Below, piece by piece: positions 53,303 to 59,492 of a stretch of 64,000 bases of DNA. The notes under the pieces are model-generated. The model made no database searches. It saw only the letters and a list, made by a program, of their open reading frames with translations, and was not told where the DNA came from. Source of the stretch: Longimicrobiales bacterium (lineage in GTDB: Bacteria > Gemmatimonadota > Gemmatimonadetes > Longimicrobiales > Gaopeijiaceae); assembly GCA_963664435.2 (NCBI GenBank), contig CAXXKM010000001.1:768001-832000 (forward strand), given 5' to 3'. How positions within the stretch are numbered: the stretch's first letter is position 1; every line of letters begins with the position of its first letter. The position numbers and the translations under genes are program-made.

Positions 53303-55153
53303 ATGGCTGACCGGACCAACGACTTCGCGTTCAAGATCGGGACCGTCAACGGGACGGGGTCGGCGAGCGCGAACGGCCTCATCATGCAGGCGATCTTCCG
53401 CATGGGAATCCCCTGTACCGGCAAGAACGTCTTCCCCTCCAACATCCAGGGGCTCCCGACCTGGTACGAAGTCCGCGTGAGCGGCGACGGCTACTCGGCG
53501 CGCACCCCCGAATTCGACCTCATCGTGGCCATGAACCCGGCCACCTACGAGCGCGACATCGCCGACGTGCGTCCGGGCGGATACCTGCTGCACGACTCCT
53601 CCTGGCCCATGGCGAAGGAGTTCCTGCGCGACGACATCAACTTCCTGGGGGTCCCTCTGGGAGAGATGTGCGTGCGGGAGTTCAAGGGCGCGCGCGTGCG
53701 CATCCTGATGAAGAACATCGCCTACGCCGGGGCGCTGGCCGCGCTGCTGTCGATGGACCTGGACGTGATCCGCAGGATGATCCGCGAGAAGTTCGCGGCG
53801 AAGCCCAAGCTCATCGGCTCCAACTACAAGGCGATCGAGCTCGGCTACGACTACGCGATGGAGCACTTCGACTGCCCGCTGCCCATCCGGCTCGAGACGA
53901 TGGACGCGACCTCGGACCATGTGCTCATGGACGGCAACACCGCGGCCGCGCTCGGCTGCGTATTCGCCGGGGCGACGGTGGGCGCGTGGTACCCGATCAC
54001 GCCTTCGACCTCGCTCATGGACGGCTTCCAGCGCTTCTGCGAGCGCTTCCGCAAGGATCCTGAGACCGGCGAGCGCAACTTCTTCATCGCCCAGGCCGAG
54101 GACGAACTGGCGGCGGCCGGCGTGGTGGTGGGCGCGGGATGGGCGGGCGCGCGCGCCTTCACCCCGACCAGCGGCCCGGGCATCTCGCTGATGAGCGAGT
54201 TCATCGGGCTGGCCTACTACGCGGAGGTGCCGTCGGTCTTCGTGGACGTGCAGCGGGTAGGGCCGTCGACGGGCATGCCGACCCGGACGCAGCAGGGCGA
54301 CATCGCGGCGGTGGCGTACGCCTCGCACGGCGACACCAAGCACATCGCGCTCTTCCCGGCCAACCCGGAGGAGTCGTTCCACATGGCGGTGGAGGCCTTC
54401 GACCTCGCCGAGCGCTTCCAGACCCCGGTGTTCCTGGTGCAGGACCTGGACATCGGCATGAACGACTGGATGATCCCGAAGCTCACCTGGGACGACAACT
54501 TCGCGCCCGACCGCGGCAAGGTGCTCGGGGCCGACGAACTCGAGCGGATCAAGAAGTTCTACCGCTACATGGATGTGGACGGCGACGGGATCCCCTACCG
54601 CTCGCTTCCGGGCGTGCATCCCAAGGGTGCGTACTTCACGCGCGGTTCGGGACACACCAGCCGCGGTACCTACACCGAGGATGCCGACGAGTACACCGAA
54701 GTGATGGACCGGCTGCGGAAGAAGATCGACTCGGCGGCGAGCGAAGTGCCCTCCCCGGCGATCGAGATGCGCGAGGGCGCCGGCATGGCGCTGGTCACCA
54801 TCGGTTCTTGCGACGGGGCGGTGCGCGAGGCGGCCGACATCCTGGAGAGCCAGGGCGTGCCCGTGGACTACATGCGCGTGCGCGGCTTCCCCTTCGACCC
54901 GCTCGTGCGTGAATTCCTGGACGCGCACGAGCTCAACTTCGTGGTGGAGCAGAACCGGGACGCGCAGCTGAAGAGGTTGCTGGTGACCGAGACCGAGGTC
55001 GACCCGGCCCGCATCCATTCGGTTCTGGACTACGGGGGTTTCCCGTTGAGCGCGGCCTTCGTAGCGGGCGAGGTGAACGAGCGCCTGGGCCTCACGCCCG
55101 ATGACAGGAAGTTGCGGCCGGCGGCGGAGCGGCCGGAAGGAGCGGTGGCATGA
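53303..55153 (+). CDS. korA: 2-oxoacid:acceptor oxidoreductase alpha subunit
   Basis: NGTGSASAN, WYPITPST, QAEDEL, TSGPG and QRVGPSTGMPTRTQQGD. Confidence 0.92.
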   Translation: MADRTNDFAFKIGTVNGTGSASANGLIMQAIFRMGIPCTGKNVFPSNIQGLPTWYEVRVSGDGYSARTPEFDLIVAMNPATYERDIADVRPGGYLLHDSSWPMAKEFLRDDINFLGVPLGEMCVREFKGARVRILMKNIAYAGALAALLSMDLDVIRRMIREKFAAKPKLIGSNYKAIELGYDYAMEHFDCPLPIRLETMDATSDHVLMDGNTAAALGCVFAGATVGAWYPITPSTSLMDGFQRFCERFRKDPETGERNFFIAQAEDELAAAGVVVGAGWAGARAFTPTSGPGISLMSEFIGLAYYAEVPSVFVDVQRVGPSTGMPTRTQQGDIAAVAYASHGDTKHIALFPANPEESFHMAVEAFDLAERFQTPVFLVQDLDIGMNDWMIPKLTWDDNFAPDRGKVLGADELERIKKFYRYMDVDGDGIPYRSLPGVHPKGAYFTRGSGHTSRGTYTEDADEYTEVMDRLRKKIDSAASEVPSPAIEMREGAGMALVTIGSCDGAVREAADILESQGVPVDYMRVRGFPFDPLVREFLDAHELNFVVEQNRDAQLKRLLVTETEVDPARIHSVLDYGGFPLSAAFVAGEVNERLGLTPDDRKLRPAAERPEGAVA

Positions 55154-56205
55154 CCTACATCCCCAAGCCCGCAGTCAGGCATCCCGGCCTCGGCGCCAAC
55201 GAGCTCGGCCTGCACATGCGCGACTACGAAGGCACAATCTCGACCCTGTGCGCGGGGTGCGGCCACGACTCGGTCACGGCCGCGGTCATCCAGGCCTTCT
55301 ACGAGCTGTCCATCCCGCCGCACCGCATCGCCAAGATGAGCGGCATCGGCTGCTCGGCGAAGACGCCCGCGTACTTCGTGGAGCAGGCGCACGGCTTCAA
55401 CGGGGTGCATGGGCGCATGCCCGCCCTCGCCACCGGAGCCAACGCCGCCAACCGGGACCTGTACTACATCGGAATCTCCGGCGACGGCGACTCGCTCTCC
55501 ATCGGCCTGGGCCAGTTCTGCCACGCGATCCGCCGCAACGTCAACATGCTGTACGTGCTGGAGAACAACGGAGTCTACGGGCTCACCAAGGGCCAGTTCT
55601 CCGCCTCGGCCGACATAGGCTCGCGCTCCAAGCGCGGCGTGCCCAACAAGAGCGAGCCCATCGACCCGGTGGCGCTGGCGCTGACCCTGGGCGCCACCTT
55701 CGTCGCCCGAGGCTTCTCCGGTGACAAGCAGCAGCTCATCCCGCTGCTCAAGGCGGGGCTGATGCACAAGGGCTTCGCCTTCATCGACGTGATCTCCCCG
55801 TGCGTCACCTTCAACGACCACGTCGGGTCCACGAAGAGCTACCTCTACACGCGCCACCACGGACACGAGCTCGTGCCCGTGGACTTCGTGCCCATCCGCT
55901 CGGAGATCTCCGCGCCGTCCGACAACGGTGGCCGCACCTCCATCACCATGCACGACGGCAGCATGGTGCGCTTCCGCAAGGTGCCCGAGGACTACGATCC
56001 CACCGACCGCCTGTCCGCCTACGAGCACTACCGCTCCCTGCAGAACCGTGGCGAGGTGGTGACCGGGCTCCTCTACCTGGACCCTTCAGGCGAGGACATG
56101 CACGACGACAACGCAACCACCTCGACGCCGCTGTCAGAAATGTCCCACGAGGACCTCTGCCCGGGCAGCGAGCAGATGGACGCGCTGATGGAGGAGTTCA
56201 GGTAG
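55150..56205 (+). CDS. korB: 2-oxoacid:ferredoxin oxidoreductase beta subunit
   Basis: LCAGCGH, SGIGCS, HGR, TPP motif GDGD..NNGVYGLTKGQ and SPCVTFN. Confidence 0.93.
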   Translation: MTYIPKPAVRHPGLGANELGLHMRDYEGTISTLCAGCGHDSVTAAVIQAFYELSIPPHRIAKMSGIGCSAKTPAYFVEQAHGFNGVHGRMPALATGANAANRDLYYIGISGDGDSLSIGLGQFCHAIRRNVNMLYVLENNGVYGLTKGQFSASADIGSRSKRGVPNKSEPIDPVALALTLGATFVARGFSGDKQQLIPLLKAGLMHKGFAFIDVISPCVTFNDHVGSTKSYLYTRHHGHELVPVDFVPIRSEISAPSDNGGRTSITMHDGSMVRFRKVPEDYDPTDRLSAYEHYRSLQNRGEVVTGLLYLDPSGEDMHDDNATTSTPLSEMSHEDLCPGSEQMDALMEEFR

Positions 56206-56220
56206 AGGGAAGGTACTGGC

Positions 56221-57036
56221 TTATTCCTCTCCCGCGTCTTCCATCCGCGCCGGTTTGCGAGTGATGGACTGCTTGAGTGCGTCCAGATTCGCGTTGACGA
56301 CTGCCTTCACCAACTCGAAGTCCGCCTCACTCAATGGGATCGGGATTCTCAGGACAGCCTGACCCCCGCTCATGAGCGGGATATTCAGGTCCCAATCCTT
56401 CGTTGTCGCCGCATCCGTTGACGGCATGGGCCGGTCAGCGGTCCTCGGGCTGCTCTCGGGTTCTTCTGCAGCGGGATCGGGTTCCGGTTCGCCGGGGTCT
56501 GATGCGTCGCTGCCACCCGAAGGCGCATCGCGAACGCCATCATCAAGCAGGTTGGCGAACTCCAGGGTATCCCGGAAGGTAGCGCTGAAGCCGTCGATCG
56601 CCTTCCGATTAAACCCACGATTCGCCAATTCCCATCGAATCGTGCTGTCAGAAGGCAGCCGCCGATTCCCTTCCCACTTGTCCCAAAGCTGCGCGTGGAT
56701 CGATGGAGCCAGCGCCGCTTCCTGACATGCCTTGACCCACTCTGGGTCATCACGGTCCTTTAGCACCAGCACCTTGCCGATGTCCGAGAGCCACACCACC
56801 CGCTGTTGGCCGCTCCCCTTCTCCTCCAAGAGGCCGTAGTGTCTCAGTGCCGCGAGTATTCGTTGTCCTAGACCGCTCCTGCGGGTGTAACCCCAGTGGT
56901 CCAAGACGGTTGCGACTGGGACTTGGTTAAGATCCTCTTTGTTGTAGAGGATCTCAGTACGCCGGATCGCTTCCTCCAGCGTAATCGCCGGGTGTTCCGG
57001 GCTCCGGGTTCTCGTCGTCTTCGTCGTGTCAGGCAT
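56221..57036 (-). CDS. Hypothetical protein with winged-helix-like N-terminal domain
   Basis: 271 aa; AT-richer codons; HPAITLEEAI..WGY..LAALRHYGLLE; acidic/Pro linker; small C-terminal domain. Confidence 0.65.
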   Translation of the reverse strand: MPDTTKTTRTRSPEHPAITLEEAIRRTEILYNKEDLNQVPVATVLDHWGYTRRSGLGQRILAALRHYGLLEEKGSGQQRVVWLSDIGKVLVLKDRDDPEWVKACQEAALAPSIHAQLWDKWEGNRRLPSDSTIRWELANRGFNRKAIDGFSATFRDTLEFANLLDDGVRDAPSGGSDASDPGEPEPDPAAEEPESSPRTADRPMPSTDAATTKDWDLNIPLMSGGQAVLRIPIPLSEADFELVKAVVNANLDALKQSITRKPARMEDAGEE

Positions 57037-57076
57037 CTCATGTCCCCATTTGCGTTAAGGAGTCGCGCATAGATGA

Positions 57077-57105
57077 AACATGGGATACCTCGGCGTGTAT
57101 GTCAA
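57077..57105 (-). promoter_or_regulatory. Putative sigma70 promoter for the 56221-57036 gene
   Basis: Minus strand TTGACA-N17-CATGTT; the -10 is weak. Confidence 0.45.
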
Positions 57106-57125
57106 GATAGTCTAGCTTGCCGTTC

Positions 57126-57154
57126 TTGACACGGTATCACAGTTTTGCTAAGAT
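57126..57154 (+). promoter_or_regulatory. Near-consensus sigma70 promoter facing right
   Basis: TTGACA (57126-31), N17, TAAGAT (57149-54), with extended -10 TG at 57146-47. Confidence 0.75.
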
Positions 57155-57261
57155 AGTAGTGATCGCAGGCCGATCCGAGACACGTCAGGAGAACATCGAG
57201 ACAGGTGAATCTGCTCCCAACCCTCTTAAGCTGAAAACGAAGGAACTGCGATGTCCTCACC

Positions 57262-57606
57262 TCAAGAACCCAAAGCGTGCGCTGGGTGTGCCTCGGCCTC
57301 TGGATTGGCTAGTGTCTCTATCCGGTCGACTGCGCCAGTAGTCGTCGCTTCGCGCATCTGGTGCCAGAGATCCCAGGCGAGCTGGGCTGTTAGCCAGAAG
57401 CCTGCGGACACGGCGAACATCTTCTCAAGGCGAAGCGCCGTGTCCGGAGTTACGCCTCGGCGCCCGTTGATGATCGCGTTCAAACGCTGGAAGGACATAC
57501 CAAGCGCCTGGGCAGCCTTGGTCTGCGTGAGGCCGTGCTTGCGTAGGACCCTCGCTAGATGCACGCCGGGATGCGTTGGGGGGCGGTATTTCGGCAACCG
57601 AATCAT
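57262..57606 (-). CDS. higA: HigA-family antitoxin (XRE HTH)
   Basis: PPTHPG..LTQTKAAQALGMSFQRLNAIINGRRGVTPDTALRL..FWL..Q..WDL. Confidence 0.93.
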   Translation of the reverse strand: MIRLPKYRPPTHPGVHLARVLRKHGLTQTKAAQALGMSFQRLNAIINGRRGVTPDTALRLEKMFAVSAGFWLTAQLAWDLWHQMREATTTGAVDRIETLANPEAEAHPAHALGS

Positions 57607-57633
57607 GGAATCTTCCTTTGGGGAATCGCTACC

Positions 57634-57924
57634 GTGATCGCGTCATTCGCCAACAAGGGGACAGAGAATGTCTTCGACGGAGAGAACACAAAAGCTGCGC
57701 GAAAGGTTTGCCCCACGGATCTCTTCCCCGCCGCCAAGGAGGCGCTGGACGCACTGAACTCCGCGATGAGCCTCCAAGATCTCAAGGGCCTTGGGTACGG
57801 ACTTCATAAACTGCACCGTGAGCGATCGGGGCAGCTGGCCATCAAGATCAACAAGCAATATCGAGTCTGCTTCGTTTGGGCTTCCGATGGTCCGACGGCA
57901 GTGGAGATCACTGACTACCACTAG
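57634..57924 (+). CDS. higB: HigB-family (RelE/ParE) toxin
   Basis: GTG start; IASFANKGTE.VFDG..KAARK, GQLAIKINKQYRVCFVW and C-terminal VEITDYH. Confidence 0.88.
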   Translation: MIASFANKGTENVFDGENTKAARKVCPTDLFPAAKEALDALNSAMSLQDLKGLGYGLHKLHRERSGQLAIKINKQYRVCFVWASDGPTAVEITDYH

Positions 57925-57931
57925 GATCCGG

Positions 57932-57976
57932 GTTCTCTTGAGAACGTAGTATAACGTAGCCCGTGCTATGTGTCAA
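57932..57976 (-). promoter_or_regulatory. Near-consensus sigma70 promoter facing left, with a palindrome at the predicted start site
   Basis: Minus strand TTGACA (57976-71), N17, TATACT (57953-48); GTTCTC-TT-GAGAAC at 57932-45. Confidence 0.75.
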
Positions 57977-57989
57977 AACGGGCTTGCCG

Positions 57990-59492
57990 TCATTCCGCCG
58001 TTGCTTTTCCGTCCCCGTACACGAAGCGCTCCACCTCGCCGTGCACGCGCTCGACCGTGTCGGCCGAGGGTCCTGCGGTGACGCGCGATACGGCGAGGGC
58101 CACCGCGAAGTTCGCCGCGAGCCCCCAGAGCCCGCCGTGGACGCCCATCGGGTTCGGATTGAGCAGGAGGGACCACCACAGGGTGGCCACGCCGGCGGCC
58201 AGTCCGGCCAGCACGCCGGCCTTGCTGAGCGAGCGGCCGCCCGGGAAGCACACCCCGATGATGGCGGGCAGCAGCTGCAGGGCGCCCGAGCCCGACAGGT
58301 TGATGATGCTCACCAGCAGGGCGCTCTCCTGCAGCGCCAGCCAATAGGCCAACCCCAGCAGCGCCAGCACGATGCCCTGGCCGACGCGCACGTAGTGCCT
58401 CTGGCTCGCGTCGCGAACGAGGTAGCGCTGGTATACGTCGCGCGTGAGCACCGTCATGTTGGCGTGCAGGATGGAGTCGAGGGTGGACATGGCGGCGGCC
58501 GCGGCGCCGGCCAGGATCAGGCCGGTGAGCCATGGGGGCGCGAAGGAGAAGAGCAGCTCAGGGAAGATGCGGTCCGCCTGGGCGAGGTCGGGCAGGACCA
58601 GCGCGCCTCCGAGACCGACCAGCGCGGCCGGGATATACAGCGTCATCAGGTAGATGGGCGTAGTAGCCCCCAGCAGCTTGAGCGTCCTGCCGTCCACCGC
58701 CGTGTAGTAGCGGATCATCATGTGGGGCTGCAGGACGATGCCGAAGGACAGCGTGATGACCATCCCCACCCAGATTCCGGGCGTGAAGAGGCCTTCGGGG
58801 CCGGGCAGCGTGAGCAGGTCGGGGCGTTCGCTCGCGACCGCTCGCCACAACTCGAGCGGACCCCCGAACAACTCGAAGGAGAGGACGAGCGCGCCCGCCC
58901 ACACCGCCACGTACATCCAGACGCCCTGCATGACGTCGGTCCAGTAGACGGCCCGCAGCCCGCCGATCGCCAGGTGCACCGCCGCCACGGCCAACATCAC
59001 GAACACGCCCACTTCGAACGAAATGCGCCCGTCGGAGGCAACTTCCACGATGTAGCCCAGCGCGAGGGCCTGCACCTGGATGTAGAGGATGGTGAAGAGT
59101 ACCGAGAACAACGCGATCGCCACCCGCACCGCCTCGGATTCGTAGAAGTCGGCCAGCATGTCCGCCGGGGTGATGTAGCCGAACGTCTTGCCCAGCGCCC
59201 AGATGCGGGTGCCGACGACATAGGTGATGGCCCCGACCAGCACCGTCCACGCCCCGGCGGCCCAGAACCCGATGCCGTGGGTGTAGAAGAACCCGCCCGA
59301 CCCCAGGAAGGCGAAGGCCGAGTGGAAGGTGGCCACCACCGTGAGGTAGAGGACAACGAAGCCGGTGCCCCGCCCGCACAGCAGGAAGTCCTCCAAGTTC
59401 ACCGACATGTGCCGGTTGGCCACCACCGCCACCCCGAGCGTCACCAGCAGATAGATGAAGATCAGGCTGGTGGCGACGACCCAGGTTTCCAT
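57990..59492 (-). CDS. Sodium:solute symporter family protein
   Basis: TFHSAFAFLG, GGLRAVYWTDVMQG and AAAMSTLDS; multi-TM. Confidence 0.92.
   Translation of the reverse strand: METWVVATSLIFIYLLVTLGVAVVANRHMSVNLEDFLLCGRGTGFVVLYLTVVATFHSAFAFLGSGGFFYTHGIGFWAAGAWTVLVGAITYVVGTRIWALGKTFGYITPADMLADFYESEAVRVAIALFSVLFTILYIQVQALALGYIVEVASDGRISFEVGVFVMLAVAAVHLAIGGLRAVYWTDVMQGVWMYVAVWAGALVLSFELFGGPLELWRAVASERPDLLTLPGPEGLFTPGIWVGMVITLSFGIVLQPHMMIRYYTAVDGRTLKLLGATTPIYLMTLYIPAALVGLGGALVLPDLAQADRIFPELLFSFAPPWLTGLILAGAAAAAMSTLDSILHANMTVLTRDVYQRYLVRDASQRHYVRVGQGIVLALLGLAYWLALQESALLVSIINLSGSGALQLLPAIIGVCFPGGRSLSKAGVLAGLAAGVATLWWSLLLNPNPMGVHGGLWGLAANFAVALAVSRVTAGPSADTVERVHGEVERFVYGDGKATAE

Follow-up and report, generated by a model that had tools for sequence, protein, structure and literature searches.

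By the usual description, the genes of a type II toxin-antitoxin pair form an operon. How, then, would a toxin gene and its antitoxin gene be expressed and controlled if they pointed away from each other? In the stretch of 64,000 nucleotides from a Longimicrobiales bacterium that was analysed here (the window), higA (-) and higB (+) are divergent with 27 bp between their start codons, and an inward-facing sigma70-like promoter lies beyond the 3' end of each gene (Table 1). An earlier note made from the sequence alone had proposed this layout and had placed both genes correctly; their products score above the cut-offs of TIGR02607 and PF05015, and the two outer near-consensus promoters, beginning at 57126 (+) and 57976 (-), were recovered by our scan. 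They are the only two promoter-like sites between 55000 and 60000 (shuffled sequences give 0.8 +/- 0.9). The whole 4.51-Mb genome has 46 sites that match the promoter consensus at 10 or more of 12 positions, so about 0.009 are expected per 850 bp. Computed from assumed start sites at 57161 (+) and 57941 (-), the predicted transcripts overlap reciprocally by about 780 nt, the same figure as in the earlier note.

Table 1. Features of the divergent higA/higB locus and its flanks (positions within the window)
Feature	Position	Strand	Remarks
2-oxoacid:ferredoxin oxidoreductase beta subunit	55150..56205	+	PF02775; conserved left flank of the variable site in the genus
orf271	56221..57036	-	belongs to a large family without annotation; P_L lies in its control region
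Promoter-like site for orf271	57077..57105	-	TTGACA-17-CATGTT; back-to-back with P_L
P_L	57126..57154	+	TTGACA-17-TAAGAT; would drive higB through antisense higA; without a clear HigA operator
Candidate leader	SD-like 57240-57244; frame 57251-57637	+	SD-like AAGGA and 128-codon frame antisense to higA; stop overlaps higB start (GTGA)
higA	57262..57606	-	HTH antitoxin, 114 aa; TIGR02607, 81 bits (cut-off 47.7)
Spacer	57607..57633		27 bp; two back-to-back ribosome-binding sites
higB	57634..57924	+	toxin, 96 aa, GTG start; PF05015, 34.4 bits (cut-off 27)
P_R	57948..57976	-	TTGACA-17-TATACT; probable ancestral higBA promoter, now predicted to drive higA through antisense higB
Predicted HigA operator	57949..57969		overlaps the P_R spacer and -10
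Sodium:solute symporter	57990..59492	-	PF00474; right flank

The hig pair and orf271 make up a lower-GC stretch (53-63%, versus 65-73% in the flanks) that lies between the symporter gene and the oxidoreductase gene, which we take to be korB-like. These two flanking genes are possible sources of - strand and + strand read-through, respectively. Comparison of the module with plasmids, phages and viral contigs found no match. The spacer between the hig genes is 27 bp long in seven loci and 26 bp in G011, and predicted pairing to the anti-SD sequence ranges from -4.8 to -9.8 kcal/mol for higB and from -4.1 to -4.9 kcal/mol for higA. Among nine RNA segments folded around the leaders and the junction, none clearly beats its shuffles (best z = -1.9, at the korB end). 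The korB-symporter junction is itself a variable site (56206-57989 of the window, and L031-L046). It may be empty (19-72 bp) or hold the hig pair, a 248-aa gene or a 391-441-aa gene; an IS-like ORF occurs there in G011, and a pair that we label from sequence reading as methyltransferase-like and endonuclease-like occurs there in G017.

The layout is, to near certainty, real and fixed. The genus, one of uncultured bacteria, is represented by 19 genomes, and the region could be taken from 15 of the 18 besides that of the window (G000), the remaining three having no useful match. The divergent junction is present in seven of the 19, and thus in six other genomes of the same genus, as well as on metagenome contig L170, whose divergent HigB is 96% identical. 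Four of the seven have an intact higB (G000, G002, G007 and G009), and in three it is cut short (after about 59 codons in G001, about 4 in G005 and about 8 in G011). G004 has a decaying higA alone and G014 a short remnant; the pair is absent from the site in G003, G008, G010, G012 and G016, and G006 and G017 are not comparable there. Of 250 further genomes from the class, 4 contain the junction DNA, and these four belong to this genus. We also classed the best 190 HigB loci, taking 30 from one match list and 80 of 117 and 80 of 207 from two more. Six are divergent (the window, G002, G007, G009, L170 and L077), of which L077 is a close-clade record that is not counted as independent. None of the other 184 is divergent: 179 are ordinary co-directional higB-higA operons, and five have no detected higA. 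Two unpublished genomes, G056 and G108, enter only the genome-search tallies, and no claim depends on either. In trees of about 100 columns with a midpoint root, the inverted HigB proteins (6 rows) form one group with support of 100/99 and a long stem, and the HigA proteins of the site (9 rows) likewise form one group (100/100, long stem). The inversion arose once and was then fixed.

A misassembled contig, which had been named as a possible refutation, is not the explanation: contigs from runs X1, X5 and X8 (three studies) bridge the junction and the six other genomes match. Because X1 is perhaps the source of the window and X8 carries L170-type substitutions, the bridging runs are not independent. 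By their listing, X6 and X8 are sponge metagenomes. A phase-variable segment would be expected to have inverted repeats at its ends and to occur in both orientations. A rare flipped state is conceivable, since rare variants are lost from contigs, and yet the orientation is the same in eight loci, no strand-changing joint is listed in four runs, and there are no inverted repeats at the breakpoints, where no exact inverted match between the two junctions exceeds 5 nt in five loci. We regard either misassembly or an invertible segment as extremely improbable. One joint in X8 (57937-58012) was considered as a promoter deletion and rejected in favor of a diverged stretch, because L170 has the identical substitutions yet keeps the promoter. 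Two further X8 joints fall inside the module (56529-57413 and 57595-58014).

Which of the two genes moved is suggested by the right promoter. A 21-bp palindromic operator matrix with the consensus ATAGCATG-N5-CATGCTAT, trained solely on 115 upstream regions of ordinary higBA operons, ranks the site over the P_R spacer and -10 as the top of 4.51 million genome positions (15.7 bits). The corresponding sites in L170, G002, G007 and G009 score 14.1-16.5 bits, and ordinary sites have a median of 22.8 and a lower quartile of 4.7. At a width of 17 bp the P_R site is not unique, with 165 positions scoring equally well. A motif search with an even-width (20-bp) palindrome missed the register of the operator, and odd widths were used instead. 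P_R itself matches the promoter consensus at 11-12 of 12 positions in all five loci with an intact higB, and no match to it was found in the loci where higB is broken. Since P_R carries this predicted operator palindrome, it is probably the ancestral autoregulated promoter, and higB would have been flipped between P_R and higA, so that it is now inverted relative to both. This in-place inversion within a minus-strand operon, which the earlier note had offered as its alternative origin, is supported by the operator, by the single-group trees and by the absence of divergent pairs among the 184 other loci. Of 64 distinct ordinary higBA promoters of this subfamily (L078-L231), 44 have a -10 whose end is 6 nt ahead of the start codon, a position that suggests leaderless toxin mRNAs.

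No comparable operator is seen on the left. The best operator score in that control region is 3.5, a value reached by 1591 genome positions. With a promoter-spacer matrix, P_L ranks first and P_R second among 71 promoter-like sites of the genome, although both scores are low (2.8 and -0.7, against an ordinary median of 16), and the left promoters of G007 and G009 score -3.7 and -8.4. P_L may still carry a weak HigA operator.

The same earlier alternative held that the inversion had silenced higB. The locus would then be a decaying or defused pair, and the conservation of the toxin argues against this. Among the four intact genomic copies, higB has dN/dS values of 0.10-0.18 at dS of 0.43-0.86 (bootstrap upper limits 0.18-0.38 for three pairs), compared with 0.05-0.15 for korB. 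The predicted HigB model (pLDDT 93) has a TM score of 0.81 to Proteus vulgaris HigB (PDB 4mct), and H58, D94, Y95 and H96 align with H54, D90, Y91 and H92 of that RelE-fold toxin, residues that are termed critical in PMC5027501. The ribosome-binding site is also kept. Because these residues are kept and dN/dS is far below 1, higB does not appear to be silenced, and since the intact copies descend from one inversion, we infer that purifying selection on higB postdates it. A silenced gene would fit the loss or breakage of higB in five of nine genomes with any trace of the pair (G001, G004, G005, G011 and G014), which shows that the module is dispensable, and it would fit a clade homologue in the database (P0004) whose terminal His is changed to Asp (H96D) and which is possibly attenuated. 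Even so, silencing seems a very unlikely account of the intact loci.

The antitoxin is likewise conserved, with dN/dS of 0.04-0.31 over codons 2-86, one near-identical pair aside; both higA and higB are under purifying selection. higA persists without an intact higB in G001, G004, G005 and G011, and the reverse was never seen, a pattern that would be expected of a harmful toxin, in a sample that is small and related. A predicted HigA2-HigB complex scores 0.90 (best control 0.02; the mark is reached by 116 of 157 solved pairs versus 2 of 215 mismatched pairs), with contacts agreeing to at least 95% and a partner pLDDT of 93; because similar complexes have already been solved, this score expresses likeness and is not proof of binding. 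Both proteins are very probably made. In G004 a higA from this clade survives as an orphan with a very long branch in the tree (L261, G004:C41:298456-298740). It now follows the symporter gene directly, in the same orientation, and neither higB nor either promoter is left. The window's genome also has a second, ordinary co-directional higBA pair (L260, G000:C2:221030-221577; 38% HigB identity) and three further HigA-like genes, so that cross-talk is possible.

If higA is read from P_R, what reads higB? P_L is the candidate, and its surroundings suggest that it was captured. It lies back-to-back with a promoter-like site for orf271 whose -35 and spacing are identical in G000, L170, G007 and G009, and a 39%-identical orf271 homologue (L253) likewise has a divergent promoter-like site, there facing what is presumably an IS1-family transposase-like gene. 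The orf271 family has 4188 representatives at E <= 0.001, and orf271 has dN/dS of 0.14-0.19. Its product has no hit in Pfam or NCBIfam, PADLOC gives none for orf271, higB or the antisense frame described below, and the nearest Atlas cluster with a family (DUF5343 in 42% of its members, score 0.90) is a lead only. Of the 12 hexamer columns of P_L, 8 do not vary among G000, G007 and G009, compared with 1 of the 17 spacer columns. A scan of 5.9 kb in G007 likewise finds the two outer promoters and no others; in G009 P_L is weak (8 of 12) and fails the promoter scan. P_L is present in four loci, all with an intact higB, and absent from four, three of which have a broken higB. The exception is G002, which has an intact higB and has lost both P_L and the leader start, and whose higB needs korAB read-through, a hidden promoter or a recent deletion. 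We think it likely that both outer promoters are used, and their conservation supports the reciprocal antisense leaders that were predicted for the two mRNAs.

The inversion could instead have been tolerated and have produced no real circuit. Under this explanation higA is expressed from P_R and higB by low-level transcription from P_L or korAB read-through, the pair acts as an ordinary addiction module, and antisense overlap and collision matter little. G002 would then keep its higB without P_L for a simple reason, and korB and the symporter gene do converge, 19-72 bp apart at empty sites. The pairing of P_L with the orf271 site also means that its conservation may serve another purpose, and the searches found no RNase III that would act on RNA duplexes. 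However, P_L has no other gene to drive here and occurs with an intact higB in four of four loci, and two facing near-consensus promoters are unlikely to be independent. A start codon is also found exactly 128 codons before the start of higB in five loci despite differing flanks. We therefore consider a merely tolerated inversion to be unlikely, although it is the most substantial of the competing readings.

A second possibility is that higB, and perhaps higA, is transcribed from hidden non-consensus promoters inside the partner gene near the junction, with only a short overlap between the transcripts and some other use for P_L. In the Ecl18kI restriction-modification system, the toxic gene is read from a promoter within its partner gene that could not be predicted from sequence (PMC2760811), and inner promoters here would account for G002. 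Scans of G000, G007 and G009 give no match to the consensus within higA or higB, and inner promoters would leave the conservation of P_L and of the leader start unexplained. They appear improbable.

The start codon mentioned above opens a reading frame that the earlier note had not claimed. The frame runs antisense to higA. All seven loci whose higA is full-length have it open, and in the decayed G011 it is closed. Its start lies exactly 128 codons before the stop in five of the seven (ATG in G000, L170, G009 and G007, GTG in G005), and an SD-like pairing of about -5 kcal/mol precedes it in G000, L170 and G009. Of 82 ordinary higA genes with at least 55% GC, 9 have this register open and 3 have it open with a start. 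The GTGA overlap with the toxin gene is automatic, because higB begins with GTG-ATC. Synonymous redraws leave the frame open with P of 0.16-0.28. A third-position T, where it would create a stop, is found in none of 10 risk columns versus 32 of 74 others (p = 0.006); conditioned on G000 the comparison is 16 of 57 others (p = 0.05, borderline), and higB, as the uncoupled control, leans the same way (1 of 9 versus 25 of 63, p = 0.09). We put the chance that this leader is translated at about even. A matching coupled leader for higA was rejected, since the frame that ends on the higA start is closed in five of five loci. The exact antisense frame of higB was also set aside; it is open in four of five loci and also in 35 of 82 GC-matched ordinary loci. 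Weak terminator-like hairpins, near chance in number, are seen in the higA leader in three loci (G000, L170 and G002) and in the higB leader in one (G007); neither is common to all loci.

Two factors of the host bear on how such overlapping mRNAs would interact. A search for RNase III (TIGR02191) was negative in all 19 genomes of the genus and in 120 of 121 genomes of the family, the remaining one being positive; the control search was positive in 9 of 14 known genomes. Searches of G000, which is 96% complete, with PF14622 and PF00636 also found none. Cleavage of the RNA duplex is consequently an unlikely mechanism, which leaves polymerase collision and masking of start sites. A lack of RNase III across a whole family would be unusual for bacteria and would touch rRNA processing and antisense control; a literature search on such a loss in a presumed phylum gave no relevant paper. 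Rho was found in the genome, and its presence would leave an untranslated leader of 475 nt, like the one predicted for higB, vulnerable.

The earlier note read the locus as a potentially bistable, excludon-like switch in which mutual repression would separate toxin-on from antitoxin-on cells. Full reciprocal overlap and face-to-face promoters suit such a switch, and the two leaders would cover both ribosome-binding sites. The overlap stands as a prediction from the assumed start sites, but the RNase III step on which excludons usually draw is probably absent, and the clear HigA operator at P_R only makes the circuit asymmetric and points to negative feedback rather than a toggle. A toy rate model does not discriminate: of 150 random parameter sets, 4 were bistable when HigA feedback was left out and 2 when it was included. 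A bistable switch is, in our judgment, rather improbable.

The reading that we prefer is an antitoxin-first loop, to which, on the basis of sequence, we give slightly better than even chances as a whole. HigA would repress P_R through the predicted operator. P_R would make an antitoxin-only mRNA with a leader of about 335 nt that is antisense to all of higB, and P_L, borrowed from the orf271 control region and not clearly under HigA control, would make a toxin mRNA with a leader of about 475 nt that is antisense to higA. Ribosomes would probably cross this leader on the 128-codon frame, which would shield it from Rho, and reinitiate at higB. At low levels of free HigA, as in a new cell, after loss of the antitoxin or with an excess of toxin, P_R would fire and HigA would be made, and the same firing would hold down the output of P_L by polymerase collision and by masking of the higB start. 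Once HigA has built up, P_R would shut and toxin could be made. The result would be a self-limiting negative-feedback loop that operates without RNase III.

The inversion may also change the consequence of derepression by the toxin. PMC12266136 reports that P. vulgaris HigB derepresses its own operon about 2.5-fold, and PMC6393540 reports full derepression by GraT through its N-terminal tail, which the HigB of this locus does not have. With higB inverted, derepression would yield only antitoxin, together with an RNA and a polymerase stream that oppose the toxin gene. Low HigA or excess toxin would thus push toxin synthesis down, and ample HigA would free P_L.

Several known systems share parts of this arrangement. 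HigBA and GraTA (P. putida GraTA, PDB 6f8s) have the same proteins, HigB fold, catalytic residues and HTH antitoxin, and a palindromic operator over the promoter, but they are co-directional; here the toxin faces away and the operator-bearing promoter can make only antitoxin. The proteins are members of the family, and the locus, which is not a co-directional toxin-first operon, is not a standard higBA. Alike in logic is the control of the Ecl18kI/SsoII restriction-modification genes (PMC2760811), where divergent genes have face-to-face promoters and the protective protein represses its own promoter, freeing that of the toxic gene. The divergent genes and facing promoters are found here at the level of sequence, as is a clear operator for the protective protein at P_R, with a weak site at P_L possible. 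In the Ecl18kI system the start sites are about 50 bp apart with one at the start of the partner gene. Here the promoters are placed outside both genes, past their 3' ends and about 780 nt from each other, and each mRNA would span the partner gene from end to end. The two systems have no related proteins, higA and higB taking the places of methyltransferase and endonuclease genes, and the locus is an analogue in logic.

Excludons and noncontiguous operons (PMC7154746, PMC12288877) share with this locus an mRNA that codes for one gene and is antisense to another, as well as collision, the likeness here being drawn from the promoters. The cases described there join antagonistic neighbors and rely largely on RNase III, which is common in excludons and not obligatory; here a single cognate pair would be joined, with reciprocal overlap along the full length of each gene, and the searches for RNase III in the genus were negative. 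The hicAB locus of E. coli and toxTA of H. influenzae have an antitoxin-only promoter that the antitoxin represses and a separate toxin promoter that it does not repress (PMC6957337), as we infer here; unlike here, those genes are co-directional with tandem promoters and no antisense overlap. In the 'type IIb' relBE2-asRelE2 system of M. tuberculosis (PMC9325379), a type II toxin mRNA is also under a cis-antisense RNA, but that RNA is separate and acts via RNase III, whereas the antitoxin's own mRNA would serve here. A Synechocystis toxin-antitoxin operon is covered by the transcript of a neighbor in an excludon-like manner (PMC4963859), and gene orientation is not addressed in the accessible part of a marine toxin-antitoxin survey (PMC12654330). 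A full-text search gave no divergent higA/higB pair in titles or the beginnings of abstracts, within a scope that excludes most subscription journals and supplements, where toxin-antitoxin tables might list such loci.

The proteins of this locus are thus ordinary and its control logic has precedents, while its architecture appears to be new, confined to one genus and often lost. Finders that require co-directional genes would miss or split such a pair. One inversion in place can uncouple the transcription of a toxin from that of its antitoxin, and yet selection keeps the locus. Its wiring would match the establishment control of restriction-modification systems and would have been reached independently. 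The 850-bp module offers a natural test bed for long-range transcriptional interference and for antisense control without RNase III, and it is a candidate example of how a translated antisense leader can arise. In the strongest form of this idea, which we hold only tentatively and think rather doubtful, toxin synthesis depends on ribosomes that translate a selected 128-codon antisense frame and restart at the toxin start; the toxin and antitoxin mRNAs would be mutual full-length antisense RNAs with no detectable RNase III, and antitoxin transcription would in this way block toxin translation. If this is true, a single inversion made a new kind of regulatory device out of an operon and added an overlapping reading frame to it.
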